Shown here piece by piece: positions 916 through 52,959 of a stretch of 64,000 bases of DNA (positions are counted from its first letter, which is position 1; each line of letters starts with the position of its first letter). A program made the translations under genes and the position numbers. The notes under the pieces were generated by a model, which saw only the letters and a list, made by a program, of their open reading frames with translations, ran no database searches and had not been told where the DNA came from. Origin of the DNA: Ignavibacteriota bacterium (GTDB lineage Bacteria > Bacteroidota > Ignavibacteria > UBA10030 > UBA6906); NCBI GenBank assembly GCA_963811705.1, contig CAWESL010000007.1, forward strand, positions 218,100-282,099, read 5' to 3'.

Positions 916-1476
916 TCAAGCACCCCTATTCCGACACGATACGCGAATTGCTTCAACCATTGGTTGATCAGGTAGGTCGCCAGTGGGAAACGAGGTGTTG
1001 GCCCCTTCAGACTCGGTCGACCAGTCTGGTCGACCTACTAAAGTTCGTCGCTTCTGTCGGTCGGCGATATAACTTCCTGATACAAGCCCGATGAACAGAG
1101 CCACCAAGAAAAAGGCCCCGACAAAGCCCACGTTGTGGAAGTATGAATCTGCAATGGTCGTACCCAAAAGCGCGGAGAGATCGCGAAGGAAGAGTTCGAC
1201 CAGAATTACCGCGATCGGTAATGAAATCACTGTCACCACTATTGCCTCCACAAGCGTTTGCGCCAGGAGATCGAAACGGCGGGCTCCAAACACTTTCCGT
1301 ACTCCCACTTCTCTTATCCGCAAACTCGCTCTCCCCAGACTTACGAGAAGGTAATTGACGCACGAAATGAACAGTATCAAAACCGCTACCGCTGTATAAA
1401 TGTAGACATTCGCGATATTCCCCTGTCGAAAGGTATTGTTAATCATGAAGGAGGAATGGAAATAAACATCCCTCAA
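916..1476 (-). pseudogene. FtsX-like ABC transporter permease, C-terminal fragment only (truncated remnant)
   Basis: A 186-aa ORF covers only the last FtsX transmembrane helices (LILFISCVNYLLVSLGRASLRIREVGVRKVFGARRFDL...). The N-terminal 250 aa or more expected for MacB/FtsX permeases are absent. The 3' tail runs into the ~75-bp repeat copy at 988-1064. Confidence 0.5.
988..1064. repeat. ~75-bp repeat, copy A (aaacgaggtgttggccccttcagactcggtcgaccagtctggtcgacctactaaagttcgtcgcttctgtcggtcggc)
   Basis: About 95% identical to copy B at 1657-1731 in direct orientation. It contains two copies of the self-complementary octamer GGTCGACC separated by agtct. Confidence 0.8.
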
Positions 1477-8548: not shown

Positions 8549-8935
8549 TTGGGCGTCTCCGTTCATACTATTCGTATGTATGAACAGTCAGGACTGCTGA
8601 TTCCATTCAAGGCCAAGAGTGGACAACGGCTCTACTCGACGCGAGACATCGATCGACTTCGGTGCATGCGCAATGCCATCACCCGAGACAAAATCAGCAT
8701 CCAGGGGATCCGCCGGATCCTCTCTCTCTCGCCATGCTGGAAAATCATCCATTGTACTGCTGAGGACCGTGCACAGTGTCCGTACTTCAACAGTCATTCG
8801 GCGCCCTGTTGGACCATGAGAAAACACGCCGACTACTGCGGAGTCCGGGAGTGCCGGTCGTGCATCGTCTATCGTGAGTTCGGCGATTGTCGAAGCATCA
8901 AAGATGTCCTGCTGCAACTCTTGCCTCCGGAATAA
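8549..8935 (+). CDS. MerR-family transcriptional regulator with Cys-rich C-terminal domain
   Basis: The HTH region YTIGVVARILGVSVHTIRMYEQSGLL matches MerR and extends upstream of the tracked TTG start. The open frame begins at 8513 with no ATG/GTG, so the start is unresolved or non-canonical. The C-terminus has 9 Cys (CWKIIHC...CPYF...CW...YCGVRECRSC). Confidence 0.6.
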   Translation: MGVSVHTIRMYEQSGLLIPFKAKSGQRLYSTRDIDRLRCMRNAITRDKISIQGIRRILSLSPCWKIIHCTAEDRAQCPYFNSHSAPCWTMRKHADYCGVRECRSCIVYREFGDCRSIKDVLLQLLPPE

Positions 8936-9008
8936 CCTGACCGCGTGATCGATTGGCCGACTCTGGAGGTCGATCTTCCCCGTTCTTCCTCATTATGGAG
9001 CGAATCCC

Positions 9009-10508
9009 ATGAAGCGCATTGTTCTATTGTTCTGTCTCGCGTTTGTCGCCGCCTCAGCCGCCCTGGCGACAAACGGTGTGAAAATGATTGGGTTCAGCGC
9101 GAAGACCGTTGGCATCGGCGGCGCATCCATCGGTACTTTTGATGGTACGGTTCTTATGATGACGAACCCGGCCGGCCTCGGCTTCATCGATGGCTCTGCC
9201 CTCGATGCGAATTTTTCGTTGATGATCCCTTCGCTGAAGTTCACCAATGTTTCGAACGGCGAGACAAACGGGAAGACGAACTATTTCCCGCTTCCCGGGC
9301 TCGCCTATGCCCACGCGAGTGCGGACAACCCGTTTGCCTGGGGAGTCGGCGCGTTCACGCAGGGAGGGATGGGAGCGGATTTCTCGCTCATCAACCCCCT
9401 CTTCCGGGACCAGACCGGCACCCTCACGCCGCAGGAGTATCATTCTCAACTTGCCGTCATGGAAGGTGGACTGAGCGCGGCCTATCGGTTGACCGACAAC
9501 TTTTCCATCGGCGTGTCGGCCCACCTTGTCTACAGTACCCTCGAATTCACCATGCCCTACAGTCTCTCTCCGTCGATCATGAAGGGGATTGCCCAGCCGG
9601 GGATGACGTTCGGACAGATGTTTGCCGCACCGCCGGCCCAGGGCGGCTTTGGCTACACGGAAGTCACCGCACTTGCGGCGATGACGGATCTGACCGCAAT
9701 CGGCTTTTGCGGCAAGATCGGCGTCGCGTACAAGGTCAGCGACCGGTTTACCATCGGGGCCAGCTACACGTCCGCATCCCCGCTGACCTACAAGAACGGC
9801 AAGGCGACGATGGATATGACCGCCCAGTTGACCGACGCGTTCGGGAAGGCCGTTCAAGGCTACATGGCTTCGAACCCTTCCGCAACTGCGGTCCAGGCGC
9901 AACAAGCCGTTGCCGGGCAGTTCGGTCAAATGGGAATCGATCTGACCAAGGGTGCAGTCGCCAACTACAACCTGCAGACCACACTGACACTCCCCCAGTC
10001 AATCGGGATCGGTGCATCATATTCCGCGACCGATCAACTCCGGTTTGCACTCGATGTCGAATGGGTCAACTGGAGTGCGGCATTCGACAAGATGGGGATC
10101 TCGCTTTCCAACGGCTCGAATGCCAATATCAACACGATGCTGGGAAACAGCGGCGCGTTCTCTCTTGATTTTCCGATGAACTGGAAGGACGCCGTCAATG
10201 TCCGGTTGGGTGCGGAGTATGCGCTCGTACCGGCCGTGCTCGTCCGCGCAGGGTACGCCTACGGAAAGAACCCCGTTCCTCCGTCAACCATTTTCCCTGT
10301 GTTCCCCGCCATCGTCGAAAACCATGCAATGGTCGGCGCTTCATGGAATATCACCAGCATCATCGGTCTCCATGTGGCGTACGAAATCGCGCTCAACAAC
10401 AAGGAGACGGCAAGTACGCCGAGCACAGTCGCCCAGGAGTACAACGGATCCGTGAGCCAACTCCTCGAAAATATCTTCCACGCCTCCATTTCCTGGAGCC
10501 TCAAGTAG
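9009..10508 (+). CDS. FadL/OmpP1/TodX-family outer-membrane hydrophobic-compound transporter
   Basis: Signal peptide, then NGVKMIGFSAKTVGIGGASIG...NPAGLGF resembling the FadL/Toluene_X N-terminal hatch region. 499 aa, alternating beta-strand pattern. Confidence 0.6.
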   Translation: MKRIVLLFCLAFVAASAALATNGVKMIGFSAKTVGIGGASIGTFDGTVLMMTNPAGLGFIDGSALDANFSLMIPSLKFTNVSNGETNGKTNYFPLPGLAYAHASADNPFAWGVGAFTQGGMGADFSLINPLFRDQTGTLTPQEYHSQLAVMEGGLSAAYRLTDNFSIGVSAHLVYSTLEFTMPYSLSPSIMKGIAQPGMTFGQMFAAPPAQGGFGYTEVTALAAMTDLTAIGFCGKIGVAYKVSDRFTIGASYTSASPLTYKNGKATMDMTAQLTDAFGKAVQGYMASNPSATAVQAQQAVAGQFGQMGIDLTKGAVANYNLQTTLTLPQSIGIGASYSATDQLRFALDVEWVNWSAAFDKMGISLSNGSNANINTMLGNSGAFSLDFPMNWKDAVNVRLGAEYALVPAVLVRAGYAYGKNPVPPSTIFPVFPAIVENHAMVGASWNITSIIGLHVAYEIALNNKETASTPSTVAQEYNGSVSQLLENIFHASISWSLK

Positions 10509-10537
10509 GAAGTCGGCAAAAGGGTTTTCACAAAAGG

Positions 10538-10580
10538 CAACGGCGATCCCGAACGAGGTCGCCGTTGTTGTTTTCGTTTA
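10538..10580. terminator. bidirectional rho-independent terminator between convergent FadL-like and lplA genes
   Basis: Hairpin caacggcga-tcccgaacgagg-tcgccgttg followed by ttgttttcgttt. Confidence 0.5.
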
Positions 10581-10604
10581 ATGAGGGCAGCGCCGGAGCG
10601 GGAG

Positions 10605-11690
10605 TTACAGCGCAGGAGGGACGGGGTTCACCGCAGCCAGGAATGCCCGGCCGAAATCCTCTTCCGCCAGGCCAGGCGACGTGATCGGCAAATCGCGATA
10701 GACTTCACGCACGCGGGCGACGACAGAACGATCGTCTGCATGCACACCGCGCAATGCCGTCTCAACACTGCCGAGGCCGAGTGCAGGGAGCATCGTGAAA
10801 TCGCCCGACAGGGAAATATCTTCGATGCGGTCCCCCGTGAGCCGCGCCGTCAGACGGAGAAGTCCCCCGGGAGCCTTCCATGCCCCTTCGACAATTCGTA
10901 CATCTTCATGGATCTTCACTCCCACGGGGCGCAGCCCTCCCCGCTGCAGCATCCATTCCTCCGATTGGAATCGACGATCCACTTCTACCGCCGCCGCCTC
11001 TTCCCGCTCCGTCCACACCCCCGGGAGGATTTCCGCATCAAGCACTTTCTCGCAGTTCCGAACGTAGAGACCCTTGACATCATCACGAGGAGGCGACGAG
11101 CCGAGCTGCTCGGTGATGGTGGTCATGTACTGCTCGAGACCCTCGACGATTTTGTCTCGCATTTTTTCCGACGACACCCTGAGAACCTTCGCCATCGTCT
11201 TCTTGTCGAACGTGAACATGAGACTCCCGACCACGACATCGGCGACGCCGATCTGCGCCGCCCCCGTCCCGCCGATTTTCTTTCCCCCGACATGGATATC
11301 GTTGACCGGTCGATGATAGGCATTGATCCCGAGTGCCTGGTAGGTCTCCACAAGCGGTCGGATATACACGGCGAAGCGCTCGACCAGATCCGCCGGAAGA
11401 TGTCCCGGCTGGAAGATCCATTGCGCGAAGACCTGTCCGCTATCGAGATAGACGGCGCCGCCTCCCACTTCGCGACGGTAGATGGGAAGTCCGCGCGACC
11501 GGCAGTGGTCGACATCGACTTCCTTCCGGAGATCCTGATGGTAGCCGATGCAGACGTAGGGACTGGAGGGACTGGCGAGGATGATGGTGTCCGGAGTTTC
11601 GGGGAGCATCGCATGACCGACCGCGTGGTAGACGGTCTGCGACCGGAGGGGGGAGACGTTCGTAAGATCAAGCAGCCTCACACGCTTCAC
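10605..11690 (-). CDS. lplA: lipoate-protein ligase A family protein
   Basis: 361 aa. N-terminus KRVRLLDL..., the conserved GGKKIGGTGAAQ (LplA GxKIxGsAQ-type motif) and an LplA C-terminal domain. The GTG start overlaps the hypC stop (GTGA). Confidence 0.8.
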   Translation of the reverse strand: MKRVRLLDLTNVSPLRSQTVYHAVGHAMLPETPDTIILASPSSPYVCIGYHQDLRKEVDVDHCRSRGLPIYRREVGGGAVYLDSGQVFAQWIFQPGHLPADLVERFAVYIRPLVETYQALGINAYHRPVNDIHVGGKKIGGTGAAQIGVADVVVGSLMFTFDKKTMAKVLRVSSEKMRDKIVEGLEQYMTTITEQLGSSPPRDDVKGLYVRNCEKVLDAEILPGVWTEREEAAAVEVDRRFQSEEWMLQRGGLRPVGVKIHEDVRIVEGAWKAPGGLLRLTARLTGDRIEDISLSGDFTMLPALGLGSVETALRGVHADDRSVVARVREVYRDLPITSPGLAEEDFGRAFLAAVNPVPPAL

Positions 11691-11959
11691 GGCAATGGCT
11701 CCGAGCCCGGCGGGAGGGTTTCCAGGTCGCGCAACTCATCGTTCATCTTCAGGAAGCCGAAAATCTCCGCCGCCGCTTCTTCGTCGATCTTGCTGAGCGC
11801 GAATCCGACATGGACGACCACATAGTCCCCGACCTGGACATCAGGAACGTAGGCGAGGCTCACGTCTTTGGAGATTCCGCCGAATTCCACCTTGCCGATG
11901 GTCATGCCGAGCGGATTGGTCTCGATGCGCACAACTTTGCCGGGAACACCTAGACACAT
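11687..11959 (-). CDS. hypC: [NiFe] hydrogenase maturation chaperone HypC/HupF
   Basis: N-terminal MCLGVPGKVV signature and a length of 90 aa. Confidence 0.85.
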   Translation of the reverse strand: MCLGVPGKVVRIETNPLGMTIGKVEFGGISKDVSLAYVPDVQVGDYVVVHVGFALSKIDEEAAAEIFGFLKMNDELRDLETLPPGSEPLP

Positions 11960-12002
11960 TTTCGAATTTGGCGTTTGAATTTTGGAAATGGGAATGGCTT
12001 GC

Positions 12003-12491
12003 TTACGATGTTCCTGACTCCCAGTCTTGGAGGATCCGCTTCACCCTGGCCGTCATCTCGTTCGACACGGCTTCCACCGCCGACGTCATGCCGAATCCAA
12101 CCGAGATATCCATCGGCTGTACCCCGATGAGGTGCAGATGTTCCGGCAGTTTTCCCCTGATCTGCGCAAGACCCAGAACCTCCTGAAACGTCACCTGGTG
12201 CTGGGACATTTTCACTCCTGAGAAGAGCGGGATCGCATCTCGGGAAAGCTCGACCACCGTTGCCGGCGGCTTCCCGGCATTGACCGCATCGAGGAGGAGC
12301 AGATGGCTGCACTCCTCCACGAGCGGCAGCAGATTCAGGCCGAGCGTACCGCCATCGACAAACTCGAACGACGTCCGGGATTCCATCTGCTCCCGCAGCC
12401 TGGCGAGCAGATGGACCCCGACACCTTCATCCCGGTTCAGCGTGTTGCCGAGACCGAGCACGATTTTCCTCCCTGCCGCCGGTTCGTTCAT
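12003..12491 (-). CDS. hupD: hydrogenase maturation endopeptidase (HyaD/HybD/HupD family)
   Basis: LGLGNTLNRDEGVGVHLLARL matches the GxGNxxxxDDGxG protease motif. Its ATG overlaps the hynL stop (ATGA). Confidence 0.85.
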   Translation of the reverse strand: MNEPAAGRKIVLGLGNTLNRDEGVGVHLLARLREQMESRTSFEFVDGGTLGLNLLPLVEECSHLLLLDAVNAGKPPATVVELSRDAIPLFSGVKMSQHQVTFQEVLGLAQIRGKLPEHLHLIGVQPMDISVGFGMTSAVEAVSNEMTARVKRILQDWESGTS

Positions 12492-14220
12492 TGCAGAACA
12501 ACGTTCAGCTCGGTGGAGACGTTCCCAACGTCCTTGCCTTCAGCGTCGATCATGTGGATGGCACACGCCATGCACGGATCGAAGGAATGGATGGTGCGCA
12601 AGATTTCGAGTGGCCACTCGGGTTTTTCCATTTTCGTCCCGACAAGAGAGGATTCGTAGGCGCCTTCCTGCCCCTTGTGGTCTCGCGGAGACGCGTTCAG
12701 GTCGTCGGCACGACGAGTTGGTAGTTCGCGATCTTGCCATCGTCGATGACGATCCAGTGTCCGAGCGCGCCGCGGGGTGCCTCCATGAAACCGAACCCCT
12801 CCGCGTGTGACGGCCAGGTGCCGGGATCCCACTTGTCGTTGTGAAGGTCCGAGTGTTCCCGGCCTTGATCTCGGCGATAAGCTCGCCGTAAAACTCGCGC
12901 AGCCAGTCTGCGATGACTTTGGTCTCGATCGCCCGCGCCGCCGTCCGTCCAAGCGTCGAAAACACCGCGCTGATCGGCGCATCGAGTTTCTTGAGCGTCA
13001 GCCGACAAGCTCTCGCGTTTGCTCATGGCCTTTCGCGTACAGCGCAAGGACGCGCGCGAGGGGGCCGACTTCCATCGGCGCTTCATTCCATCGCGGGGAC
13101 TTCAGCCAGGAATACTTCTGTTCGACCTCGAGGTTTTTATACGGCGATTTCGGCCCCGTGAAATTGAGTTCTGTTTCGCCGCGCCAGGGATGAAGACCGA
13201 CCTGGTCGCCACCGCTGTACTTGTACCAGCTATGGGCAATGAATTCCTTCATTTTGTCGAAATCCCGCGGATCTGGCTCGATGATGTTCGCGAGATCCTT
13301 GTTCATGATCGCGACACGGGGGAACAGGTACTTTGACGTGTCTTTCGGATCAACGCCGGGGAATTCTCCCACGTCAGGAAATTGCCGAGCTCACCGCCGA
13401 TGCCCGCGTAGTCTTTATAGTACGGGGCTATGGCGAGGATATCGGGGATGTAGACCTGATCGACGAACTCGACGATCTTGTCGATCGAATCGGCGATGAT
13501 CGCGAGGCGTTCCGCGTTCAATGCGGTGTCGCTGTTGAGATCGATCGGCATCGGGATGCCGCCCACCACGAAATTCGGGTGCGGTTCTTTCCCCCGAAGA
13601 TCGTGTGCATCTTGTCACATGCCGCTGCCAATCAAGGGCTTCGAGGTAGTGCGCGACGGCGAGCAGGTTGATCTCCGCCGGGAGCTTGTACGCCGGGTGC
13701 CCCCAGTAGGCATTCGAGAAGATCGACAGTTGCCCGCTCGTTGCGATGCCTTGCACCTTCTTCTGCACATCGGCGAAGTAGGCGGGAGAAGAATTGCCCC
13801 ACGCGGAAATCGCCTGTTGGATTTCCGAGGTCTTCTTTGGATCCGCCTTGAGCGCGGCGACGACGTCCACCCAATCGAGCGCATGGAGGTGATAGAAATG
13901 CATGACGTGATCGTGGATGTACTGTTGCGCGATCATCATGTTACGGACGATATTCGCCGCCTGGGGAATCCGGATGTCGAGGGCATCTTCGACCGACTGG
14001 ATGGACGCAAACGCGTGCACGGTGGTGCAGACCCCGCAGGCACGCTGGGTGAACGCCACGCTTCCCGCGGGTCCCGCCCTTTCAGGATGATTTCCATTCC
14101 CCGGACTATGGTGCCGGATGAATATGCCTTCGTGATGGTGTTGCTTTCATCCAGTTCGGCTTCGATCCTGAGGTGTCCCTCGATGCGGGAAATCGGATCA
14201 ACGACGATACGATGTGCCAT
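12488..14220 (-). pseudogene. hynL: [NiFe] hydrogenase large subunit (HynL/HyaB-like), interrupted by ~7-8 single-base frameshifts
   Basis: Homologous segments appear in successive frames. First [20 protein letters not shown]..., then [14 protein letters not shown] (the RxCGxC Ni-binding motif), then ...VGGIPMPIDLN..., then ...[10 protein letters not shown]..., then [13 protein letters not shown]..., then [10 protein letters not shown]...VVPTT, then NASPRD...HSFDPCMACAIHMI (the C-terminal DPCxxCxxH motif). Together they are collinear with E. coli HyaB. AGGAG lies upstream of the ATG at 14220. Confidence 0.85.
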
Positions 14221-14230
14221 ACACGTTCTC

Positions 14231-14584
14231 CTATTGGTTGCGGAGCCAGTCGAGGCCCTCGGCTTCATTCTCGAAATTGCGCACCGCGTGGGCGTAGTAA
14301 CTCTCGTCAATATCCAGTGTCCCCGGCGGCAGGATTCCCCCGATGATCGCCGCCACCGGCATCATGGGCCGGAGCTGACGAATGTGCCGCGCGCATTCCA
14401 CGACAGGAGTGCCGGTGAGATCGATGAGGAGTTTTCCCCGATAGTCCCTGAAAAACGTCGCGAGCGATTGGATGTCTTCGGGCGAAAACGTTCCACTATG
14501 CCTGCAGCGCATGATCCCTTTTTCCACTGGTGTCAGATTGAACGATGCCATGCTATCATCTCCGGGAAAAGTTCGGGCAGCCAA
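14231..14584 (-). CDS. hypothetical 117-aa protein inserted between isp2 and hynL
   Basis: ORF whose stop lies 10 nt upstream of hynL. No confident family match. It has weak receiver/STAS-like character ([21 protein letters not shown]). Confidence 0.35.
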
Positions 14585-14587
14585 AGA

Positions 14588-15846
14588 CTATTCCATTGCT
14601 TCCGCCACCATCTGCGACAGTCCCCTGACCTTGATGTCAAGATGGAAGTGTTCAACGCTGTCGGTGTACTGCAGTCTGCAATTGGAACAGGTCATCGTGA
14701 CGGTCTTCGCGCCGACGGCCTGCAGTTGCCGCATCTTCAGCTCGAACACGCCGTAGCGGTTCGCATCGGCTTCTTTGATGGCGATCACCCCTCCGCCACC
14801 GCCGCAGCAGACCGACTGCTCCTTGTTTGGCGTCATCTCCTTGAAGGCATTCGGGGCAAGGATTTGCAGGATCTCGCGGGGCTCCTGGATGTGTGATCGC
14901 GCCGCTGGATCTTGCACGCGTCGTGAAACGTGAGAACGCCGTCCCCGTCGAACGCCCCCTTCTTCAGGGTGAGTCTCCCCGCCTTGATGTAGTCCATGGT
15001 AACACCGACGATGTGAACAATCTCCAGGCCTTCGGGGACTTTCATCATGTTCGCCGCGGTCCACCGGAGGGCGTCGTAGGCATGTCCACATTCCGTGACC
15101 AGCAGCCGCTTCACGCCGAGATCCTTTGCCGCGTCAAAGAGCCGCTGCATGAACAATATGGTCCGCTCGTTGCTTCCTTCAAAGAACCCGAAATTCACCA
15201 CCTCGCGACCGGCGCTGCTGACAGTCCATTTCTCCCCGGCCTTGGTGAGGATCTTCGCAATCGCGGCGATGGTCTCGGGGAACTTCATGATCTCGATGGA
15301 GGTGAACACCACGAGCGTGTCGGAACTCTTGACGTCCGTCGGAATTTCGACCTCCCACTCGTCGGCGATCCACTCCATGCGCTGTTCCCACACCGACTGG
15401 GTGGCGCCGAGCGGACTGCCCTCCTCGACCTGCTTCTTGACCGCTGCCATCAGGTCGGCCGGGACAACCCCGGCATTGGACATCGCTGTCCGCACATCGT
15501 GGATCATTGGACTGAGCTGGATCCCCATCGGACAGACCATCGCGCATTTATTGCAGAGCGTGCACGCTTCATACACGATGGTGCTCCAGTGCGCGATGTC
15601 CTCATCGGTTATTTTCTTATCCATCCCGAGTGCGAGCTTCGCCCGTCCGCCAAGGGTACAACGCTGCTCGTACGCCCGGCGGAGAAGCTCCACTTTCCAC
15701 ACCGGTGCAAACTCCGGGTTATTCATCGCTTCGTAAAAGTGACACGCCTCGGCGCAGATGCCGCACCGAGTGCACGCTTCGAGCTGCGAGGCCAACCATC
15801 CGCCGGTCTCCTCGATGAACGTCGTGAGGGCTTGTTCGGTTGCCAT
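14588..15846 (-). pseudogene. isp2: Isp2: HdrD/GlpC-like Fe-S protein with two CCG domains, one frameshift near 14900
   Basis: MATEQ... contains two CxxCxxCxxxC(P) ferredoxin motifs (CTRCGICAEAC, CTLCNKCAMVCP), a first CCG-type domain (ECGHAYD...TFHDACKIQRR), then a frame switch into the second CCG domain (PREILQ...CCGGGGGVIAIKEADA...CSNCRLQ). A GAGGAGG SD precedes the ATG at 15846. Confidence 0.75.
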
Positions 15847-15860
15847 GACGGGCCTCCTCG

Positions 15861-16538
15861 TTACGGTGTGACGGCGCGTTTGCCGAACTGCGCGCCGTGA
15901 ATGGTCCGGGAAAAGAAATAGAACATGAAATGCGAAATTCTGCTGAACGGAATCCAGAGCAACATGATGTCGACCGAAAGCACATGAAGCGCAAACAGCA
16001 TTTGATACGGCGAGAACAAATGATGCGCCATCAGGTACCCCGTGATCATCGGGAGAAACACCACGAGCCAATTCACGACCTCCGCGACACCGGTCAGGAG
16101 CTTCAATACCGGATCGATGAAGCGGTTGATCAGGAGGGCCGCCATGGCGATGATCGTCACTGCGGCAAGCCAGTCGATGATCGGTACCGGGATCGTCGTC
16201 CAACTGAGCCCCAGGAGACTCTTCCACACGAGCATGTGCGGCGTTCCGAGGAAGACAATCACAAATAGCCCGAGATGGAACAGGCCGCCCGCAAGGTACA
16301 TGACCGGTTTTTTCGAAAACGTGTTCTTCACCCAGGGGATAAACGGCCAGATGACAATCCCCTTGAGGTACGTGATGGCGACCCCTTTCGCCTTGCTCTC
16401 TTTGGACGGGACCCTGTCGCGACTCCATCCCAGCAGAAGGACGCGCATCAGCCGGTACGCCATTCCGCCGACGAACACGATGAGCGCCACGTTAAAGAAG
16501 GGCCCCCGTGCGAATTCAAGTGTTTCATTCCAGTTCAT
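15861..16538 (-). CDS. isp1: Isp1: NarI/DsrM-like dihaem cytochrome b membrane anchor
   Basis: 225 aa, about 5 predicted TM helices with conserved His residues (FHLGL, TPHML, AHHLF, ALHVL). It sits between hynS and isp2, as in Isp-type hydrogenase loci. Confidence 0.65.
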   Translation of the reverse strand: MNWNETLEFARGPFFNVALIVFVGGMAYRLMRVLLLGWSRDRVPSKESKAKGVAITYLKGIVIWPFIPWVKNTFSKKPVMYLAGGLFHLGLFVIVFLGTPHMLVWKSLLGLSWTTIPVPIIDWLAAVTIIAMAALLINRFIDPVLKLLTGVAEVVNWLVVFLPMITGYLMAHHLFSPYQMLFALHVLSVDIMLLWIPFSRISHFMFYFFSRTIHGAQFGKRAVTP

Positions 16539-16547
16539 GGCAGTCTC

Positions 16548-17657
16548 CTATTCAGCAGTGACATGCTTCTTGGAGGCGCGATTGCCTGCGGCCACTCCCG
16601 CGCCAACCACCGCGCCAGCGCCTGCGGCGATCCCGAGGGCGGTGAGTGTCGGCTTGCTGAGCGGCGCCGATTGACCCTGATAAAACCCTCCGCCGTCCCA
16701 GAAATTCGGCTCCGAGCAACCTAGACACGGGTGCCCCGATTGGATCGGGAACGAAAGACCGCGGTCCCATTTGATTGTCGCGCACGCATTGTACGTTGTC
16801 GGACCTTTGCAGCCGAGTTTGTAGAGACACCAGCCTTTTCGCGCTCCTTCGTCGTCGAAGGAAAGTGCGAATTTCCCGGCCTCATAGAATGGCCTGCGCA
16901 GGCAGCGGTCATGGATCGTGTTGCCGTAAAACGTCTTCGGCCGGTTAAGCTCGTCGAGCTCGGGAAGCGTCCCGAACACCAGGAACTGGGCGAGCGTGCC
17001 GGTAAAGACTTCAGGAATCGCGGGACAGCCCGGAATATTCACCACGGGTTTGTCGGTGATGATCTCCGCGATCCCTTTCGCTTCGGTGGGATTGGGCTTC
17101 GCCTTCGGAATCCCGCCAAAGGTCGCGCAATTTCCCGTCGCAACGATCGCCAACGCACCGGCCGCCGCTTCTTTGAGCAGGTCGTTGGCCGACCGGCCGC
17201 CGATCGTGCAATAATCACCGTTGATGCCGAGAGGCACGGAACCTTCTACCACGAGGACATACTTCCCTGCGTACTTCTTCATTGTCTCCATCTTGTTCTC
17301 TTCGAGCTGAAATCCCGAAGCAGCCGAAAGCGTCTCGTGGTACTCAATGGAGATCTTGTTCAGGACGAGATCAATCAGTGTGGGCGATTGTGAGCGCGTG
17401 AGCGCTTCGCTGCATCCTGCACAGTCCTGAAATTCAAGCCAGATGACGGGCACCCGTGGCCGCGACGCAAGCGCTTTTCCCACCACGTCCGCGCCGGTGC
17501 CGTTGGACGCGAGAACAGACTCCGGGAAACCGCTCGCCTTCCACGGGGGAAAAGAATTCAACCCCATCGCTCCTGCCAGGAGACCGCACAGCTTCACAAA
17601 ATCCCGGCGCGTCACGCCTTCACGCCGGAGATGCTGATAGATTGTCTCTTCAGACAT
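16548..17657 (-). CDS. hynS: [NiFe] hydrogenase small subunit with Tat signal and C-terminal membrane anchor
   Basis: RRDFVK Tat motif, PVIWLEFQDCAGCSE and the proximal, medial and distal Fe-S cluster Cys ligands. C-terminal hydrophobic anchor. GGAGG SD upstream. Confidence 0.9.
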   Translation of the reverse strand: MSEETIYQHLRREGVTRRDFVKLCGLLAGAMGLNSFPPWKASGFPESVLASNGTGADVVGKALASRPRVPVIWLEFQDCAGCSEALTRSQSPTLIDLVLNKISIEYHETLSAASGFQLEENKMETMKKYAGKYVLVVEGSVPLGINGDYCTIGGRSANDLLKEAAAGALAIVATGNCATFGGIPKAKPNPTEAKGIAEIITDKPVVNIPGCPAIPEVFTGTLAQFLVFGTLPELDELNRPKTFYGNTIHDRCLRRPFYEAGKFALSFDDEGARKGWCLYKLGCKGPTTYNACATIKWDRGLSFPIQSGHPCLGCSEPNFWDGGGFYQGQSAPLSKPTLTALGIAAGAGAVVGAGVAAGNRASKKHVTAE

Positions 17658-17675
17658 GTGTTCCTCCGCAAGGAT

Positions 17676-18122
17676 TCACTGACATGAGATGCCGTCGGCT
17701 TCGAGCTTGGCCTGATACTTTGCAATGCCTTCGGGTCCGGTGACAAGGGTGCCTTTTTCACCATCCCAATCATTGGCCTTCATCTCCGCGATCCACCCTT
17801 CACCGTAAGGATCGGCGATCGCGATATTCGGATCCTGCGCCAGCTTCTCGTTTGCGCGCTGCAGAATGCCGGTGACCGGCGCCGGCACAGGCCCGACGAA
17901 CTTGCTGCTCTCCACGGTCGCGACACTCTTCCCTTGTTTGACCTCCTGGCCGATGTTTTTCGCCTTTACGGTGATCGCCGCGAGCTTCCCGCCGGACAGC
18001 TTCGCCGCGACTGAGGTCATGCCGATGCGAATGATCCCTCCGTCCATCGGTTTCGCCCAAACGTGCTTCTCGATATTATAGAAGAGATCGTCGGGCAGAT
18101 GACAGCCACGAATCGTCGCCAT
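17676..18122 (-). CDS. GcvH-like lipoyl-carrier protein (stand-alone, LbpA-like)
   Basis: 148 aa collinear with E. coli GcvH: EKHVWAKP..., a lipoyl-lysine motif VESSKFVGPVPAPVTG and DPYGEGWIAEMK near the C-terminus. No gcvT or gcvP nearby. Confidence 0.8.
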   Translation of the reverse strand: MATIRGCHLPDDLFYNIEKHVWAKPMDGGIIRIGMTSVAAKLSGGKLAAITVKAKNIGQEVKQGKSVATVESSKFVGPVPAPVTGILQRANEKLAQDPNIAIADPYGEGWIAEMKANDWDGEKGTLVTGPEGIAKYQAKLEADGISCQ

Positions 18123-18137
18123 GGTTCGTTTTTCTCC

Positions 18138-18527
18138 TTAGAAGGTCAGTGTCGTTTTGGCTTCTTCGGACATTTGCCACATCGCTGCACCGCCCACCAT
18201 CTTTATTCCATCAAGCAAATCGGATGGTTGGAGGTCGTGCAGTTCCGTCGAGGCGGTGCAAGCGGTAAACTTCACCCCTGCGTCCATGGCGTCCTTGAGA
18301 AAGTCCGACACCGGCTTGCCGCCGGCCTTCGGATAGACGGTTTCCGCCATTCCCTTCTTCAGGAGCAGCGTTCCGTCGATGGTAAAGAACATGGTGACGT
18401 CATATTCCATGGCCGCTGCAAGCGTGGCGAAAAAGAACGGCGTCGCACACCGCCGGGGTGTGTCGGGACCGCTGGTCATAATAATGAGAATCTTGTCATC
18501 CATGATAACAGTCCTCGAAGAGCACAT
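18138..18527 (-). CDS. DsrE/DsrF-like sulfur-relay family protein
   Basis: About 120-129 aa (a likely start at MDDKILIIM near 18503), YchN/DsrE fold pattern and a conserved Cys in GVKFTACTAS. Confidence 0.6.
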   Translation of the reverse strand: MCSSRTVIMDDKILIIMTSGPDTPRRCATPFFFATLAAAMEYDVTMFFTIDGTLLLKKGMAETVYPKAGGKPVSDFLKDAMDAGVKFTACTASTELHDLQPSDLLDGIKMVGGAAMWQMSEEAKTTLTF

Positions 18528-18608
18528 CAGGAATTTGAGTGGAATGGAAAGAACGGAACCGCGGGAGAAGAGTCAAAGAGCGTTCAGCGAAATCGAACAG
18601 CGTTGCGT

Positions 18609-19085
18609 TCAGAACGTCAGCGTGATGGCATTCCTGCTGGCAAACTCCAGGAATGTCGCGGCTCCGCCGATCTGGAGACCGTCCATGAGTTCTTCCTTCT
18701 TGATGCCCATGACGTCCATGGTCATCTGACAGGCAATCAGTTTGACGCCGGATTCCACGGCGATGTCCAGCAGCTCGCTCAGCTTGGCCACCTTGGCTTT
18801 CGACATCCAGCTGTTCATCATCATGGTGGCCGCCGCGGTCATGCCGGGGAGCATTCCGATGATGTTCGGCATCGGGACCGGCATCGCGGGGTTTCCGATC
18901 GGGGCGACTTTCAGATGGTCGGCTTTTCCCTTCTTGATGATTTCGAGTCCGTAAAACGTGAAGAAGATCGCCGCCTCCATCTCCATCGCCGCGGCAGCCG
19001 TGGCGAGAATAAGCGGCGGGTACGCCGCGTCAAGAGAGCCGTGCGAGGCAATGATTGCAATGCGTTTGCTTGATTCTTCAGGCAT
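18609..19085 (-). CDS. DsrE/DsrF-like sulfur-relay family protein (longer, DsrE3-like)
   Basis: 158 aa: RIAIIASHGSLD...FFTFYGLEIIKKG...GVKLIACQMTMDVMG. Conserved active-site-type Cys. Confidence 0.65.
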   Translation of the reverse strand: MPEESSKRIAIIASHGSLDAAYPPLILATAAAAMEMEAAIFFTFYGLEIIKKGKADHLKVAPIGNPAMPVPMPNIIGMLPGMTAAATMMMNSWMSKAKVAKLSELLDIAVESGVKLIACQMTMDVMGIKKEELMDGLQIGGAATFLEFASRNAITLTF

Positions 19086-19108
19086 GGGGTTGTTCTCCGG
19101 CAGAAATC

Positions 19109-19345
19109 TTATTTGGTCTTCTTGATGTAGAACGTAAACGTCCCACTGTTTTCTTCATGACTCAGCAACTGGTGTCCGGTCTTTTGCGTCCACGCCGTGA
19201 CATCCGGCACCGAGCCGGCATCGGTGGCGATCATCTTGAGGACCTGACCGACCTGAAGGCTGTCGACCGCCTTCTTCGTCTTCAAAATCGGCATCGGACA
19301 TGCCAGGCCGGTGCAATCGAGCGTCTGATCTGCATTCGTGGCCAT
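19109..19345 (-). CDS. tusA: TusA-like sulfurtransferase
   Basis: 78 aa with LDCTGLACPMPILKTKKA (CPxP motif). Confidence 0.8.
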   Translation of the reverse strand: MATNADQTLDCTGLACPMPILKTKKAVDSLQVGQVLKMIATDAGSVPDVTAWTQKTGHQLLSHEENSGTFTFYIKKTK

Positions 19346-19370
19346 GATCTGCTCCTGAGGAGTGATTGAT

Positions 19371-20117
19371 TCATTCGTTGGGTAAGGTACTCATGTGCGC
19401 GATGGAGCGGAGACGATTGATTAACTCGGCCCGCTCGTGCGCAACCTGTTCAAACGTCATCGCGACCTTTTCGAGCCAGAGGCCGAGCTGGTCCTCGTAA
19501 CGGCGATCGATACGGCGGATGTGTTTGGCGGCCGTGTGGAGATCGTCCGCAGGGATGTCGTGCATTGCGGCCAGCTTCTCAATCCGGGCGCTCTCTTCCT
19601 CGGGATCGGGGGCGTCATCATAGAATTGGCCTGCGATAACCATCGCAACAGGAGCTCCGTTGAGTTCAATCCGGGAGCGCGCGTATTGCAGGCCGGCATG
19701 ACAGGTCACAAATTTCGGGACCTTCTCCGATTGTTGCGCAAGCTTCTCCCACGACCCGAGACATGCCTTTTTGCCGGATGGGCTTTTGAGGATCAGCGAG
19801 CAAAAATCACACGAGTTACTGATCTCGGTAAGCGGTTCCCCCGTCGGCGATGTGGTCAGGGAGCCCACCTGGGCAATCTCGGCAAACACTTGTTGAATCG
19901 GAAGAACACAATGGATGGGAAGTGGGTCACTTGGCAAGGTTTCAAGGTCAGGGCGAACCGCGCCTCCGACGAGCGCGTCTACTTCGTCCTTCGAAAACCT
20001 CCATTGCCCTCCCACCCTGACACCGGTAATGCGGCCGTCCTTCAACATCCTGTAGATCGTCGTTCGATCAATCTTCAGAAGTCCCTGCAGTTCCTTCGTC
20101 GTAAGAAGGTTGGCCAC
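19371..20117 (-). CDS. HTH (excisionase/MerR-like) DNA-binding regulator with C-terminal Cys-containing sensory domain (PocR-like)
   Basis: The N-terminal LTTKELQGLLKIDRTTIYRMLKDGRITGVRVGGQWRF is an excisionase-family HTH. The C-terminal ~170 aa contain conserved Cys and His (CDFCSLIL...CLGSW...CHAGL). First gene of the sulfur-carrier/hydrogenase array. Confidence 0.5.
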   Translation of the reverse strand: MANLLTTKELQGLLKIDRTTIYRMLKDGRITGVRVGGQWRFSKDEVDALVGGAVRPDLETLPSDPLPIHCVLPIQQVFAEIAQVGSLTTSPTGEPLTEISNSCDFCSLILKSPSGKKACLGSWEKLAQQSEKVPKFVTCHAGLQYARSRIELNGAPVAMVIAGQFYDDAPDPEEESARIEKLAAMHDIPADDLHTAAKHIRRIDRRYEDQLGLWLEKVAMTFEQVAHERAELINRLRSIAHMSTLPNE

Positions 20118-20129
20118 AATCCGTCCAGA

Positions 20130-20185
20130 TCTGTTACGTTGCTATAGTTTGCTACAACTTGCCATAGCATATTATTGAAATTGAT
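20130..20185. promoter_or_regulatory. imperfect triple direct repeat TTGCTATAG / TTGCTACAAC / TTGCCATAGC immediately upstream of the HTH regulator
   Basis: gttacgttgctatagtttgctacaacttgccatagcatatt lies in the 235-bp intergenic region upstream of the regulator start at 20117. Confidence 0.3.
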
Positions 20186-20352
20186 CGGAATTGTCAAGAA
20201 AAATCTTTTCCATGGTTTGCTTGTTCGGGCAATTTTTGGGAGCCAGGACTATCAGGGAGGGGGGCGCCGAGCTTCAAGAAAAGAGCGATTAGGGAAGCAG
20301 GATTCGCGCTTGGCGCGACTTGGAGGGGTGGGAATCTGTAAAGACGGAGATG

Positions 20353-20973
20353 CTACGTTCGATTCGTCGAAGTTTCAGCAAGGACAAAGTGGCTGTAGAC
20401 TCCGACGAAACCCGAGTCCAGGATCTTCCAGCCGTTCGATTCGAGCGTCTGTATCACCGATGCCAGGGCCACGCGATGCGCGGCTGGTGGACCAGGAGGA
20501 GAAGCCATGTCTGCACGCCAGTCGACAATTGCAAGTCTGCCATCCTGGCGGAGGACCCTCGCCGCCTCGGAAAGCACCGACGGGAGTTCATCCAGTTCAT
20601 GCCAGAGATTTGCCATGAAAACCATGTCGACACTTTTCGCCTGCAGCGTTGTCGACGTTGCTGAACCCGAGACAAGCTCGACATTTGTCAGTCGCTGATA
20701 TGCATCGAGTTTTGCTTTGATCTTTCCGAGCATCGCAGATTGGAAATCGACCGCCACGACCTTCCCTCGTGAGCCGACCATCTCCGCAAACGGGATGGCG
20801 AAATACCCTGTCCCCGCTCCGATGTCCGCGACAACGGAATTTTCTTTGAGTCTGATTTTTGCAATCACATGATCCGCCGACAGCCAGGTTGGCCTGTTGG
20901 GGTCATCAAGGACATGGGCCCTGTCCGCGTGAAATGTGCGTTCGTTCATTGCTCCTTTGTGTTCCGGCTCCAT
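20353..20973 (-). CDS. class I SAM-dependent methyltransferase
   Basis: Motif I VADIGAGTGYFAIPFA and post-I VVAVDFQSAML. 206 aa. Confidence 0.7.
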   Translation of the reverse strand: MEPEHKGAMNERTFHADRAHVLDDPNRPTWLSADHVIAKIRLKENSVVADIGAGTGYFAIPFAEMVGSRGKVVAVDFQSAMLGKIKAKLDAYQRLTNVELVSGSATSTTLQAKSVDMVFMANLWHELDELPSVLSEAARVLRQDGRLAIVDWRADMASPPGPPAAHRVALASVIQTLESNGWKILDSGFVGVYSHFVLAETSTNRT

Positions 20974-25805: not shown

Positions 25806-26584
25806 ATGAAAGATACGTACCGGGGGATTTTGATGGTTGTCCTGACAGCCCTCATAGCTGCAGGGACGGCGCCCGCCCAATGGGTGAACACCAACGCGCC
25901 GAACGGAGTTCAGAATAAGACGTCATTCTTCGCGACAAGCTCTGCACTATACGTGACGTGTAATGCCGGGATCTTTCGGACCACGGATTTCGGCGCGACT
26001 TGGGCTCCATGCGATTCCGGGCTCATGTCGCTCTTCGAGAATTGCAGGGACCTTTACGCTCGGAACATTCCGCGCGAACGACCCGGCAGGGTTCTGGACC
26101 ATGGCCGGAACCGGATTCTTCTGAAATGACGGCGTATGGCATCAACAACCTGCAACTGGACAAGAACGATTTCTATGCCGGGACCGGTGGCGGAGTTTAT
26201 CGATCAACGGCAACAATCTCTTCGCTGCTGTGTACGGATCAGTTGTTACCTCCATCCCCGCTGCAAACGATCACGTTCCATCCGGATTCGTCCTGTCGCA
26301 ACACTATCCGAATCCCCGCCCGCCTGACTAAGCATGGGCCCAGGGCAGGCGGTCGGGCGGGCGTTCAATCCAAAAACAGTCATCGGCGGACAGGGGACAG
26401 TGAGGTTCGGCTCGAGGTATTCGACATCCTCGGACGCAAAGTGGCGACCATTGCTAATGGCAGGTACTCGGCGGGGAAATATACGTTTGCCTTTGACGGG
26501 ACGAACCTTGCGAGTGGGGTGTACCTTTGCAGACTCACAGCAGGTTCATACTCTGCTCTTCGGACGATGTTGTTGATCCGTTGA
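25806..26584 (+). pseudogene. BNR/Ycf48-like repeat protein with T9SS C-terminal sorting domain, fragmented across 3 frames
   Basis: Signal peptide followed by BNR-like [12 protein letters not shown] and [10 protein letters not shown] in different frames. The terminal [63 protein letters not shown] is intact. No single continuous ORF. Confidence 0.5.
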
Positions 26585-50888: not shown

Positions 50889-52778
50889 TTAGTTTGAGAC
50901 GAATGTCGTAATGCTCGACGGGTCGAGCGTAGCCTGGAAGCTTCCGTGGACAGTCGGGATGTCGGTTCCCCGGGTGCAGTTTTTCGCGATCGACGTTGTA
51001 TAAGACGAAAACGACGCCGCGGGCCCGTTTGCCATGACAAAGCCTTGTTGGATCGGCGACGACCCGGTGTTTATCGCGACGATGACAATCTTCGAAGTGG
51101 TGCCGTCTCGGTATGCCGAGATCCAGACATTCCGCTGGGGAGTGGCGAAGCAGCCGATCCTCGTATATCCCGGGCGTACGAACTTCGCGAATTGCGACAT
51201 AACATAACCGCGCTTGGTCACGGTCCCGTCCTCGGCGATCGGTCCATAGTACCTCACGATGTACCACCAGACGTACGCATTCATGCCGGCGTTCAGGCAA
51301 TCATGGATTTCCTTCCCGGTTGCGAGGACCGCCGACCAGCTCGTGTCAAGCACCAGATGTTCCGTCATCCAGAAGTCTTTTCCTTTGCTGACGGCAAGAG
51401 GATACGGACCGAGCCCTCCGCCGTAGATATGTCCGGCGATGATGGATAAATTCGCTGCTGCCGCAGAATCATTCAGCGTCGGGTCAGACAATGCGTGGAC
51501 GAAATTCTGGGATTCCGGCATCATCACCCTGGTCCCGATGGACCCGGCATTATTCTTGGTGAACTTCAGGAACTGCGCGCCATTCCAACTGCACGACTCG
51601 TACGTGACGTTGGCGTCCGGTTCATTCTGCAGCGATACGGCATACAAGGGCACGCCATTCCCTGCCATGTAGTCGGCGAAGTTCCTGAGGTGCGCGGCAT
51701 AGGATGCGTAGGACGAATCGTTGAGCACCCCCGCAACGATACTGTCACTGCTTTTCATCGCCGGCGGAGGGGTCCACGGCGTCGCGAAAACAATGGCGCC
51801 GAGCGATTGCGCAAGCGTCGCCGTCGGCAGGTTTGCACTGAACTCGCTCACGTTATCCGTGAAGGGGATCCGCAGGCGAAGGATCGTCAGCCCGATCTGA
51901 CCGGGCCCTGTCCCGAATGCCGTTTGAACCTGGGCGGAGGTCATGTCGGGCCGCCAGGGCAGAATATTCGCTCCTCCAAATCCCCGGATCGTCTGGAGCA
52001 CGCTGTCCAGCACCACTCGCGAAGTCGGTATCGCGACCTGTGCATTCACAACGAAGTCCAATGTGGTATCGCTTTCGACGACAACATTGTCAAATTCGGC
52101 GGGAAGCACATTTGGCGAAGTTCCGACCGCCGTGTCTATGCGCACGGAGAATGCCGTCGCTGACACTGTCCGCAGGATTCCTGGGGCCGTGTTTGGTGCC
52201 GGCAACCCAAGGGGGATTTGCAGCGAGGGGACACCGCCGTTTCCTTCGCCGAAGACCATCTTCCTTGTCTGCATTTCGTTCCCTGCCTGCAGACTATAGA
52301 AATAGACACCGGCAGCCACCCGGTGCCCGCTGCCATTGTTGCCGTCCCAAAGAACGCTATGCGTGCCCGGTGACTGGGTCCCGGAACGCATTGAACGTAT
52401 CACCCTCCCGAGAATGTCATAGATCGTGACTTTGATATCCTCTTGCGTCTTGAGCTTGTATGGGATGGCCGTCGACGTCATAAACGGGTTCGGATAGTTC
52501 TGCTCGAGTTCAAATTTGGCCGGCAGAGTATTGGCAGGCATAACGGAAGTGAGGGAGAGTTGCATCTGGTATTTTCCCGTCGAGTCCGTACGCACAGAAG
52601 TAGCGTTCGTCGGATTCGCGGTCTGCGCAAAGGTGATAGAGGCATTTCGCACTGGTGCAGTCGACGTCGTCACGCTGCCTTCCACGACGACAGTCTGGGC
52701 GGAGACGATGGCGGGAGGCAGTGCCAGGCCAAGGCAAAGGGCCATGAGGATCAGGCGGCCGAAGGAAAGCTTTGTCAT
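50889..52778 (-). CDS. GH30 (subfamily-8-like glucuronoxylanase) fused downstream of an N-terminal Ig-like domain and an internal T9SS-CTD-like domain
   Basis: Signal peptide, then a CarbopepD_reg-like beta-sandwich, then a CTD-like block (KFELEQNYPNPFMTSTAIPYKL...VTIYDILGRVIRSM...GVYFYSLQAGNEMQTRKMVF), then GH30 motifs GFGGANI, SLQNEPD and WMTEH. Single continuous ORF. Confidence 0.6.
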   Translation of the reverse strand: MTKLSFGRLILMALCLGLALPPAIVSAQTVVVEGSVTTSTAPVRNASITFAQTANPTNATSVRTDSTGKYQMQLSLTSVMPANTLPAKFELEQNYPNPFMTSTAIPYKLKTQEDIKVTIYDILGRVIRSMRSGTQSPGTHSVLWDGNNGSGHRVAAGVYFYSLQAGNEMQTRKMVFGEGNGGVPSLQIPLGLPAPNTAPGILRTVSATAFSVRIDTAVGTSPNVLPAEFDNVVVESDTTLDFVVNAQVAIPTSRVVLDSVLQTIRGFGGANILPWRPDMTSAQVQTAFGTGPGQIGLTILRLRIPFTDNVSEFSANLPTATLAQSLGAIVFATPWTPPPAMKSSDSIVAGVLNDSSYASYAAHLRNFADYMAGNGVPLYAVSLQNEPDANVTYESCSWNGAQFLKFTKNNAGSIGTRVMMPESQNFVHALSDPTLNDSAAAANLSIIAGHIYGGGLGPYPLAVSKGKDFWMTEHLVLDTSWSAVLATGKEIHDCLNAGMNAYVWWYIVRYYGPIAEDGTVTKRGYVMSQFAKFVRPGYTRIGCFATPQRNVWISAYRDGTTSKIVIVAINTGSSPIQQGFVMANGPAASFSSYTTSIAKNCTRGTDIPTVHGSFQATLDPSSITTFVSN

Positions 52779-52959
52779 CTGGTTGCAGTCGCCGCTGAAC
52801 AGGCAGGATTCATGGCGGGGAGTCATGTTCACAATGTCCTTTGCGCATCTCCAATGGTTTTTCAATTCCCCTGTTTCAATGATGCCATGGGGCAGAACTT
52901 TTCGATTTGGTTTCTGAGATGACGAGGGTGGGATGGGGAATGCCTCCTCCGCACTCGCC

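Follow-up and report, generated by a model that had tools for sequence, protein, structure and literature searches.

In a 64,000-nucleotide stretch of an Ignavibacteriota bacterium (GenBank assembly GCA_963811705.1, contig CAWESL010000007.1, positions 218,100 to 282,099 of the forward strand; the whole stretch is called the window here), the gene hynL for the large, catalytic subunit of a [NiFe]-hydrogenase (Isp-type, group 1e; 12488..14220, minus strand) lies in eight pieces separated by seven single-base deletions. We are highly confident that these breaks, and a similar one in the neighboring gene isp2, are consensus errors in an under-polished patch of a long-read metagenome assembly and that the gene is intact in the organism. 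As a biological feature the broken hynL is almost certainly not real. Judged from its sequence, the underlying locus is an ordinary uptake [NiFe]-hydrogenase operon of the Isp-type (group 1e), a kind that is already known.

A three-frame translation of the minus strand places the HynL pieces collinearly in frames 0, 2, 1, 0, 2, 1, 0 and 2, which corresponds to seven successive -1 shifts, and both nickel-binding motifs are present, as a preliminary description of this DNA had reported. All seven shifts sit in short homopolymers (runs are given for the coding strand, positions as plus-strand coordinates of the shortened run). We compared them with 120 homologues and with L001, a near-identical assembly of 11.7 kb (European Nucleotide Archive, ENA, ERZ25039489 contig_125023) that was found by exact look-up of the HynS and HynD proteins. 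At 14056-14057, GGG is reduced to GG; the added base restores EAW-AFT with W55 and A56, which are invariant in the homologues, and L001 has the extra G. The loss of A from AAA at 13612-13613 is likewise made good in L001 and restores HVT-K-MHT, where K204 occurs in 117/120 homologues. At 13583-13584 (CCC to CC) the restored sequence is GGKN-P-HPN with invariant N213, P214 and H215; here L001 carries a different error of its own, 2-4 nt away. The preliminary description had resolved the runs at 13612 and 13583 by eye, and both proved exact to the base. The change of GGGG to GGG at 13368-13370, with FLTW-G-EFP as the restored sequence and W285, G286 and E287 invariant, is common to the window and L001 and so is absent from the list of their differences. 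The remaining three bases are all present in L001: a G at 13002-13003 (GGG to GG; restored ELV-G-LTL), an A at 12842 (AA to A; restored RTF-N-NDKW, N462 in 106/120 homologues) and a G at 12698 (GG to G; restored PTT-W-NASP with T509, W510 and N511 invariant). As deposited, the longest open piece of hynL has 214 codons. The seven added bases yield an open reading frame (ORF) of 1740 nt and 579 aa without a single internal stop, where about 20 would be expected in a random frame. The best homologues are likewise 579 aa long, the top match being 89% identical. The restored protein holds the N-terminal motif RxCGxCxxxH at residues 60-69 (14015-14044) and the C-terminal motif DPCMACAIH at residues 550-558 (12554-12580).

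The damage extends beyond hynL. A single deletion (GG to G at 14898) disrupts isp2 (14588..15846, minus strand), the gene of an HdrD/DsrK-like Fe-S protein that has a CCG domain, and the restored product of 419 aa agrees with the 418-420 aa of its homologues. Thus, the seven shifts in hynL stand, but the eighth of the roughly seven to eight that the preliminary description had placed within 12488-14220 lies outside that range, and while hynS, isp1, hynD and hypC are intact, isp2 is not. Altogether, the low-quality patch (patch A, 12510..16399) contains eight single-base deletions, about 13 changes of G to A on the coding strand and two other substitutions relative to L001. This load of about 23 lesions in 3.9 kb (0.6%) essentially represents a single error mode. 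Every one of the eight indels removes a single base from a run of 2-4 (P = 1e-3 for eight of eight in runs of at least two), and their clustering within 2.2 of 64 kb has a probability of 4e-10. Five of them drop a G from a G run on the same strand as the G>A changes. The 13 GC>AT transitions are without exception G>A on one strand (P about 2e-4), and in 12 of the 13 the changed G is followed by another G (GG>AG, P about 2e-6). Several of these substitutions alter residues that hardly vary, or do not vary at all, among the homologues. In HynL the window departs from the homologue consensus by M38I, R75Q, I205M, G278E and G573E, in Isp2 by G112S and G174S and in Isp1 by G47E; L001 has the consensus residue at each position, and R75 is arginine in 120/120 homologues.

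L001 aligns to positions 20486..8751 of the window at 99.6% identity. In a base-by-base list of differences it supplies the missing base at six of the eight deletion sites of the window, the exceptions being 13583 and 13368-13370. L001 is not free of errors itself: 17 deleted bases private to it break lplA, fadL, isp1, isp2 and hynL, although lplA, fadL and isp1 are intact in the window, and one extra base at 19930 breaks the helix-turn-helix (HTH)/PocR regulator gene that is intact in the window. Data of this type thus demonstrably yield such -1 errors, and since the window and L001 each have their own set, the errors behave as consensus noise rather than as inherited mutations. They are not reproducible across assemblies, as the eight deletions of the window and the 17 deleted bases of L001 coincide in one case and a third assembly, described below, is open throughout. 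The window and L001 differ by 23 substitutions, 20 of which fall inside 12510..16399, and 13 of these 20 are A in the window and G in L001 on the coding strand; at three or four other differing sites the homologue profiles suggest that L001 is wrong. The 7.8 kb of flanking sequence shared with L001 lack coding substitutions attributable to the window, compared with about 0.4% in patch A; the only substitutions in the flanks are intergenic, at 20291 and 20293, apart from one at 11068 beside a deletion in L001. The deleted bases of L001 lie mostly outside homopolymers and all between window positions 8923 and 16064. Since the 4.4 kb of L001 past 16064 have none, its quality is uneven along its length, too.

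The third assembly consists of three independently assembled short contigs of the run ERR11594405 (Logan), which were found by exact look-ups with HynS, HynD, Orf106 and FadL. The first (2567 nt) encodes DsrE, LbpA, an exact HynS of 369 aa and the start of Isp1. The second (2012 nt) continues with the end of Isp1, a complete Isp2 of 419 aa, an exact Orf106 and the first 23 codons of HynL. The third (5531 nt) opens with a hynL frame of 565 codons that is cut by the contig end, followed by exact HynD (162 aa), HypC (90 aa), LplA (361 aa) and exact FadL (499 aa). The 565-codon frame ends at a stop that overlaps the start of hynD by 4 nt, as in the window. The contigs tile the operon, every intergenic distance equals that of the window, and both the 419 aa of Isp2 and the 14 + 565 = 579 codons of HynL match the restored lengths exactly. 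An uninterrupted hynL frame of this length is incompatible with the presence of any of the seven deletions, and it covers the site at 13368-13370 that is shortened in both the window and L001. The absence of the lesions from independent assemblies is thus shown, and in a population with identical flanking proteins the operon is whole. This agrees with the first of two alternatives in the preliminary description, namely a poorly polished stretch with an intact gene. The ends of these contigs within the operon, at about 16.16 kb and at 14.15-14.18 kb, are a hint of strain variation or of a shift in coverage at these places. Exact look-ups of restored HynL (the 579-aa protein and its C-terminal part of 565 aa) and of restored Isp2 in 11 variants mixing residues of the window and L001 had no match in the collection, and in a homology search with Isp2 the closest match was no nearer than 88%. 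Exact look-ups of LplA and, from more distant parts of the window, of an aldehyde dehydrogenase, a short-chain dehydrogenase/reductase (SDR) and a lipoprotein also had no match, probably because the called starts differ, and have no bearing either way.

A comparison with orthologous loci, which the preliminary description had proposed as a check, points in the same direction. Among the matches listed, we considered the best 80 related genome loci, all of other species, and hynL is a single uninterrupted match in every one of them. The closest relative with available DNA, L082 (Joint Genome Institute, JGI, 3300057049), has an intact HynL of 579 aa and is unshifted at the sites in question. Relative to L082, the ratio of nonsynonymous to synonymous substitution rates (dN/dS) of restored hynL is 0.055, with dN of at most 0.15 and dS of about 0.7-1.7 in the individual segments between frameshifts; isp2, isp1 and orf106 have ratios of 0.07-0.12 (orf106 about 0.11). 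Relaxed selection on hynL in the form of stops, larger indels or a dN/dS near 1 is not observed, although such signs are insensitive to a very recent event. Recoding, in which ribosomal frameshifting or transcriptional slippage would restore the frame in vivo, can practically be dismissed. The location of each shift in a short homopolymer is all that speaks for it, and it would need eight shifts in two genes that lack slippery heptamers and long runs. Moreover, none of the eight sites is shifted in the best 80 related loci or in L082, and 6/8 are unshifted in L001, with the missing base present.

In a sister genome, L083 (ERZ25039554 contig_21384, 800 kb), hynL (11973-13713) is interrupted by one +1 insertion: a surplus G follows AAGAAA at about position 1239 of the gene, elsewhere than the sites of the window. 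This is probably another consensus error. The spacer between orf106 and hynL comprises 354 nt in L083 and 10 nt in the window.

A second gene of the window is shattered in the same manner. Located on the plus strand at 25806..26584 (patch B), it codes for a short BNR beta-propeller protein that has a sorting domain of the type IX secretion system (T9SS). Homologues align collinearly in frames 2, 1, 3, 2 and 1, corresponding to about four -1 shifts in about 400 nt. Two of these can be read directly (AAA to AA at 26206-26207 and GGGGG to GGGG at 26393-26396), and both joins restore sensible sequence. The match to the sorting-domain profile extends from positions 19-70 in the raw sequence, below the Pfam threshold, to 2-70 after stitching, above the threshold. 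The source annotation keeps just a 152-aa fragment (P0244) of this gene. As in patch A, the indels are of single bases, in homopolymers and biased towards deletions, as expected of consensus errors. That two unrelated genes show the same clustered deletions argues for a matter of sequence quality and not for selection on hydrogen metabolism. Hence, the statement of the preliminary description that the errors are local is right as to their clustering in patch A, but they affect isp2 and a second region as well. Elsewhere in the window thirty long ORFs have full-length Pfam domains. A scan for frame switches in coding potential flagged four places: patch A, the gene at 25806..26584, an FtsX-domain fragment at 916..1476 and a position at about 39.6 kb, the last of which is consistent with an ordinary overlap of two genes. 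Additional frameshifts were considered at overlapping ORFs at 21-25, 38-41 and 49-53 kb and rejected, as the Pfam domains there are of full length and the overlaps result from upstream alternative starts.

The second alternative of the preliminary description was a very recent inactivation of the catalytic subunit by frameshifts only. The approximately 13 G>A changes in 12510-16399, the hit in isp2 and the damage to an unrelated gene all contradict it. A broader version would be a true, very recent pseudogenization in which a strand-coordinated burst of GG>AG changes and -1 deletions killed isp2 and hynL in one sub-population, caused by a cytosine deaminase acting on exposed single-stranded DNA or by an error-prone repair patch, while sister cells keep an intact operon. 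The lesions are, after all, physically present in the deposited sequence. The strand bias of 12/13 GG>AG changes (CC>CT on the other strand) resembles that of enzymatic deamination clusters, and the lesions span roughly isp1 to hynL and leave hynS and hynD untouched. In addition, one frameshift is shared with L001, and the sister genome L083 also has one in hynL. However, deamination fails to account for deletions in A and C runs, an independent assembly has the intact operon next to identical flanking proteins, data of the type of L001 give equivalent deletions in genes that are certainly intact, and the same clusters of -1 shifts recur in a second, unrelated gene 10 kb away. The contrast between the flanks, free of coding substitutions assignable to the window, and the patch with about 0.4% excludes uniform neutral decay, and a real event would require a localized, strand-specific burst. 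We therefore regard pseudogenization as very unlikely, and that the lesions are real in one sub-population as a kataegis-like event over 4 kb in a wild bacterium as slightly less likely again.

Errors could also have arisen by cross-mapping of reads from related populations on conserved hydrogenase genes instead of by low depth. HynL and Isp2 share 84-89% identity with proteins from uncultured populations elsewhere, the gene cluster is shared across phyla, and the contigs of ERR11594405 break within the operon as they would at a branch of the assembly graph. On the other hand, Q75, E278, E573 and I38 of HynL occur in none or almost none of the 120 homologues and hence were not imported from relatives, HynS is equally conserved yet free of errors, and the gene in patch B is poorly conserved, its best homologues being 30-40% identical. 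This origin of the errors appears very improbable to us.

We thus return to consensus errors of low-depth sequence as the best explanation. In this case, the consensus at about 12.5-16.4 kb would have the quality of one or few reads from one strand, in which bases were lost from short homopolymers and a G before another G was read as A. The lesion density of patch A (0.6%) is as expected from one or a few reads, and the one-strand G>A bias lends indirect support; we conclude that patches A and B are short stretches probably resting on very few reads, likely of one strand. The technology was most likely Nanopore with Flye and Medaka, a judgment based only on contig names: L001 and L083 have names in Flye style (contig_NNNNN; ERZ2503xxxx), and this naming is also what would link them to the long-read genomes of Microflora Danica, to which several of the related genomes belong. 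Nanopore R10.4.1 reads served to produce those genomes, which were assembled by metaFlye and polished once with Medaka but not with short reads (PMC12313526). The window itself is part of an 885-kb contig that NCBI and ENA both list. For Nanopore assemblies, especially at less than about 40x, the literature describes lost homopolymer bases that break up gene calls as well as errors specific to one strand (PMC9262707, PMC11927395, PMC11610603).

Several points weigh against this explanation. It is built on assembled sequences, the depth, strand balance and mapping quality of the patch being assumed. What ERR11594405 contributes are the coordinates and lengths of genes together with exact matches of flanking proteins, and it is tied to the window by these proteins and the gene spacing. 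Given good depth, current Nanopore chemistry normally resolves runs of 2-4 bases well. No repeats were found to flank patch A that could be a structural cause of the drop in quality exactly there. Finally, the GGGG to GGG deletion at 13368-13370 that is shared with L001 demands either a systematic error or a real variant. This site lies directly between ACGT and GAATTC, and a methylation-linked systematic basecalling error is conceivable here, which is speculation.

For the public record, the consequence is that the catalytic subunit of the only hydrogenase of the window is annotated as fragments, which calls for a quality flag. Metabolic reconstructions would wrongly score this genome as unable to use H2 or list a pseudogene. 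More generally, long-read metagenome contigs can hide patches of read-level quality in clean sequence, at least two in the 64 kb studied here, and such patches can mimic recent gene inactivation and introduce false amino acids at catalytic positions, R75Q being an example. Were the lesions true after all, they would be a record of natural, strand-specific hypermutation confined to one place, which the evidence strongly opposes.

The operon reads hynS-isp1-isp2-orf106-hynL-hynD-hypC on the minus strand from 17657 to 11687. The small subunit HynS (16548..17657, 369 aa) is intact, matches TIGR00391 and a twin-arginine translocation (Tat) signal model with RRDFVK at 17592-17609, and has exact copies in L001 and ERR11594405. 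The frame of isp1 (15861..16538, minus strand) is intact and encodes a membrane-bound b-type cytochrome-like anchor of 225 aa that resembles TmcC, HmcE and DsrM, while Isp2 matches the NCBIfam models of DsrK/TmcB/HmcF with the CCG domain. The intact orf106 (14231..14551, minus strand; 117 aa if read from 14584) has exact copies in L001 and an ERR11594405 contig; it matches no Pfam or NCBIfam family, occurs in 29/80 related loci and is under purifying selection. The gene hynD for a maturation endopeptidase of the HyaD/HybD family (12003..12491, minus strand) is intact, with exact copies in L001 and ERR11594405, and its ATG overlaps the stop of hynL by 4 nt (ATGA). It is followed by an intact gene for a HypC/HupF-type chaperone (11687..11959, minus strand; NCBIfam). 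The best solved structure for restored HynL is that of the membrane-bound hydrogenase of Allochromatium vinosum (3MYR_B, E = 3.9e-245) with 818 bits, versus 658-697 bits for enzymes of the E. coli Hyd-1 type. The position of isp1 and isp2 between the genes of the small and large subunits is kept in 69-71 of 74-76 related loci. By its predicted nickel-binding motifs, gene order, closest relative and the presence of a Tat signal together with an endopeptidase, the enzyme is a member of group 1e (Isp-type). From what is known of this family, HynSL would be exported by the Tat pathway and oxidize H2 in the periplasm, and the electrons would pass via Isp1 in the membrane to the HdrD-like Isp2 in the cytoplasm.

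The operon is part of a larger conserved cluster (window 20117-10605, minus strand; L082 3825-13568; L083 5485-15613) in the order HTH/PocR regulator, tusA, two dsrE-type genes, the GcvH-like lipoate-binding protein gene lbpA, hynS-isp1-isp2-hynL-hynD and a lipoate-protein ligase gene (lplA). LbpA has the lipoyl-lysine motif VESSKF at 17898-17915. Among related loci with enough flanking sequence, which belong to Chloroflexota, Ignavibacteriales and Aminicenantes, lbpA is found in 43/68, tusA in 38/61 and lplA in 35/62. No sHdr genes are adjacent to the operon in the window. These associations hint at a possible exchange of electrons between the HdrD-like Isp2 and either lipoyl-LbpA or sulfane-sulfur carriers; in a brief literature search we found no paper tying LbpA to Isp hydrogenases.

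Further features lie elsewhere in the window. An element of about 80 nt is directly repeated at 987-1065, 1655-1731 and 1548-1603, with copies of 96-100% identity and a further, diverged one. The element contains the palindrome GGTCGACCAGTCTGGTCGACC as its core and is similar to repetitive extragenic palindromic (REP) sequences or miniature inverted-repeat transposable elements (MITE). An isolated C-terminal FtsX permease domain (916-1476), which resembles a gene remnant, is flanked by the copies. A large xylan-utilization locus at 38000-63600 comprises glycoside hydrolase (GH) and related genes, namely two GH10, GH43, GH115, GH8, glucuronyl esterase-like and GH35/42-like genes, as well as genes for an FG-GAP/ASPIC protein and a TonB-dependent receptor. 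T9SS sorting domains are found on many of its predicted proteins, many secreted glycoside hydrolases among them, and suggest a member of the Fibrobacteres-Chlorobi-Bacteroidetes (FCB) group. In a GH30-like xylanase (50889-52860, minus strand) a module resembling such a domain (Por_Secre_tail/FlgD_ig) is located N-terminally, right after the signal peptide, and not at the usual C-terminal position. The ORF of this xylanase is continuous, so this arrangement is not a frameshift effect.

The lesions described here can be set against several known phenomena. They match homopolymer errors in Nanopore (Flye/Medaka) metagenome-assembled genomes in being single-base deletions that fragment genes, accompanied by strand-specific substitutions, missing from an independent assembly and found in more than one unrelated gene. 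What sets them apart is that they affect runs of only 2-4 bases and crowd into patches of 0.4-4 kb, the contig being otherwise clean, instead of being scattered over long homopolymers. With genuine pseudogenes that have accumulated frameshifts, hynL shares multiple frameshifts in a still recognizable gene. However, stops, larger deletions and a relaxed dN/dS are all absent from it, its mutational spectrum is one-sided and an intact copy exists with identical flanks. In having 12/13 changes of the GG>AG type on one strand within about 4 kb, the window presumably resembles clusters of APOBEC3G-type hypermutation or kataegis. In contrast to these, it adds -1 deletions in G, A and C runs and is contradicted by independent assemblies, and we know of no such process acting in this way on a bacterial chromosome locus.

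The operon itself corresponds to the Isp-type HynSL-Isp1-Isp2 system of purple sulfur bacteria (A. vinosum, 3MYR; Hyn of Thiocapsa roseopersicina) in the order hynS-isp1-isp2-hynL, both nickel-binding motifs, a HynS with Tat signal, a TmcC/HmcE-like Isp1 and a DsrK/HdrD-like Isp2. It differs from the classical hyn operon of purple bacteria by the additional orf106 between isp2 and hynL and by its location between tusA-dsrE-dsrE-lbpA and lplA. Furthermore, unlike the purple sulfur hosts, its carrier is an uncultured bacterium whose secreted enzymes bear T9SS sorting domains.

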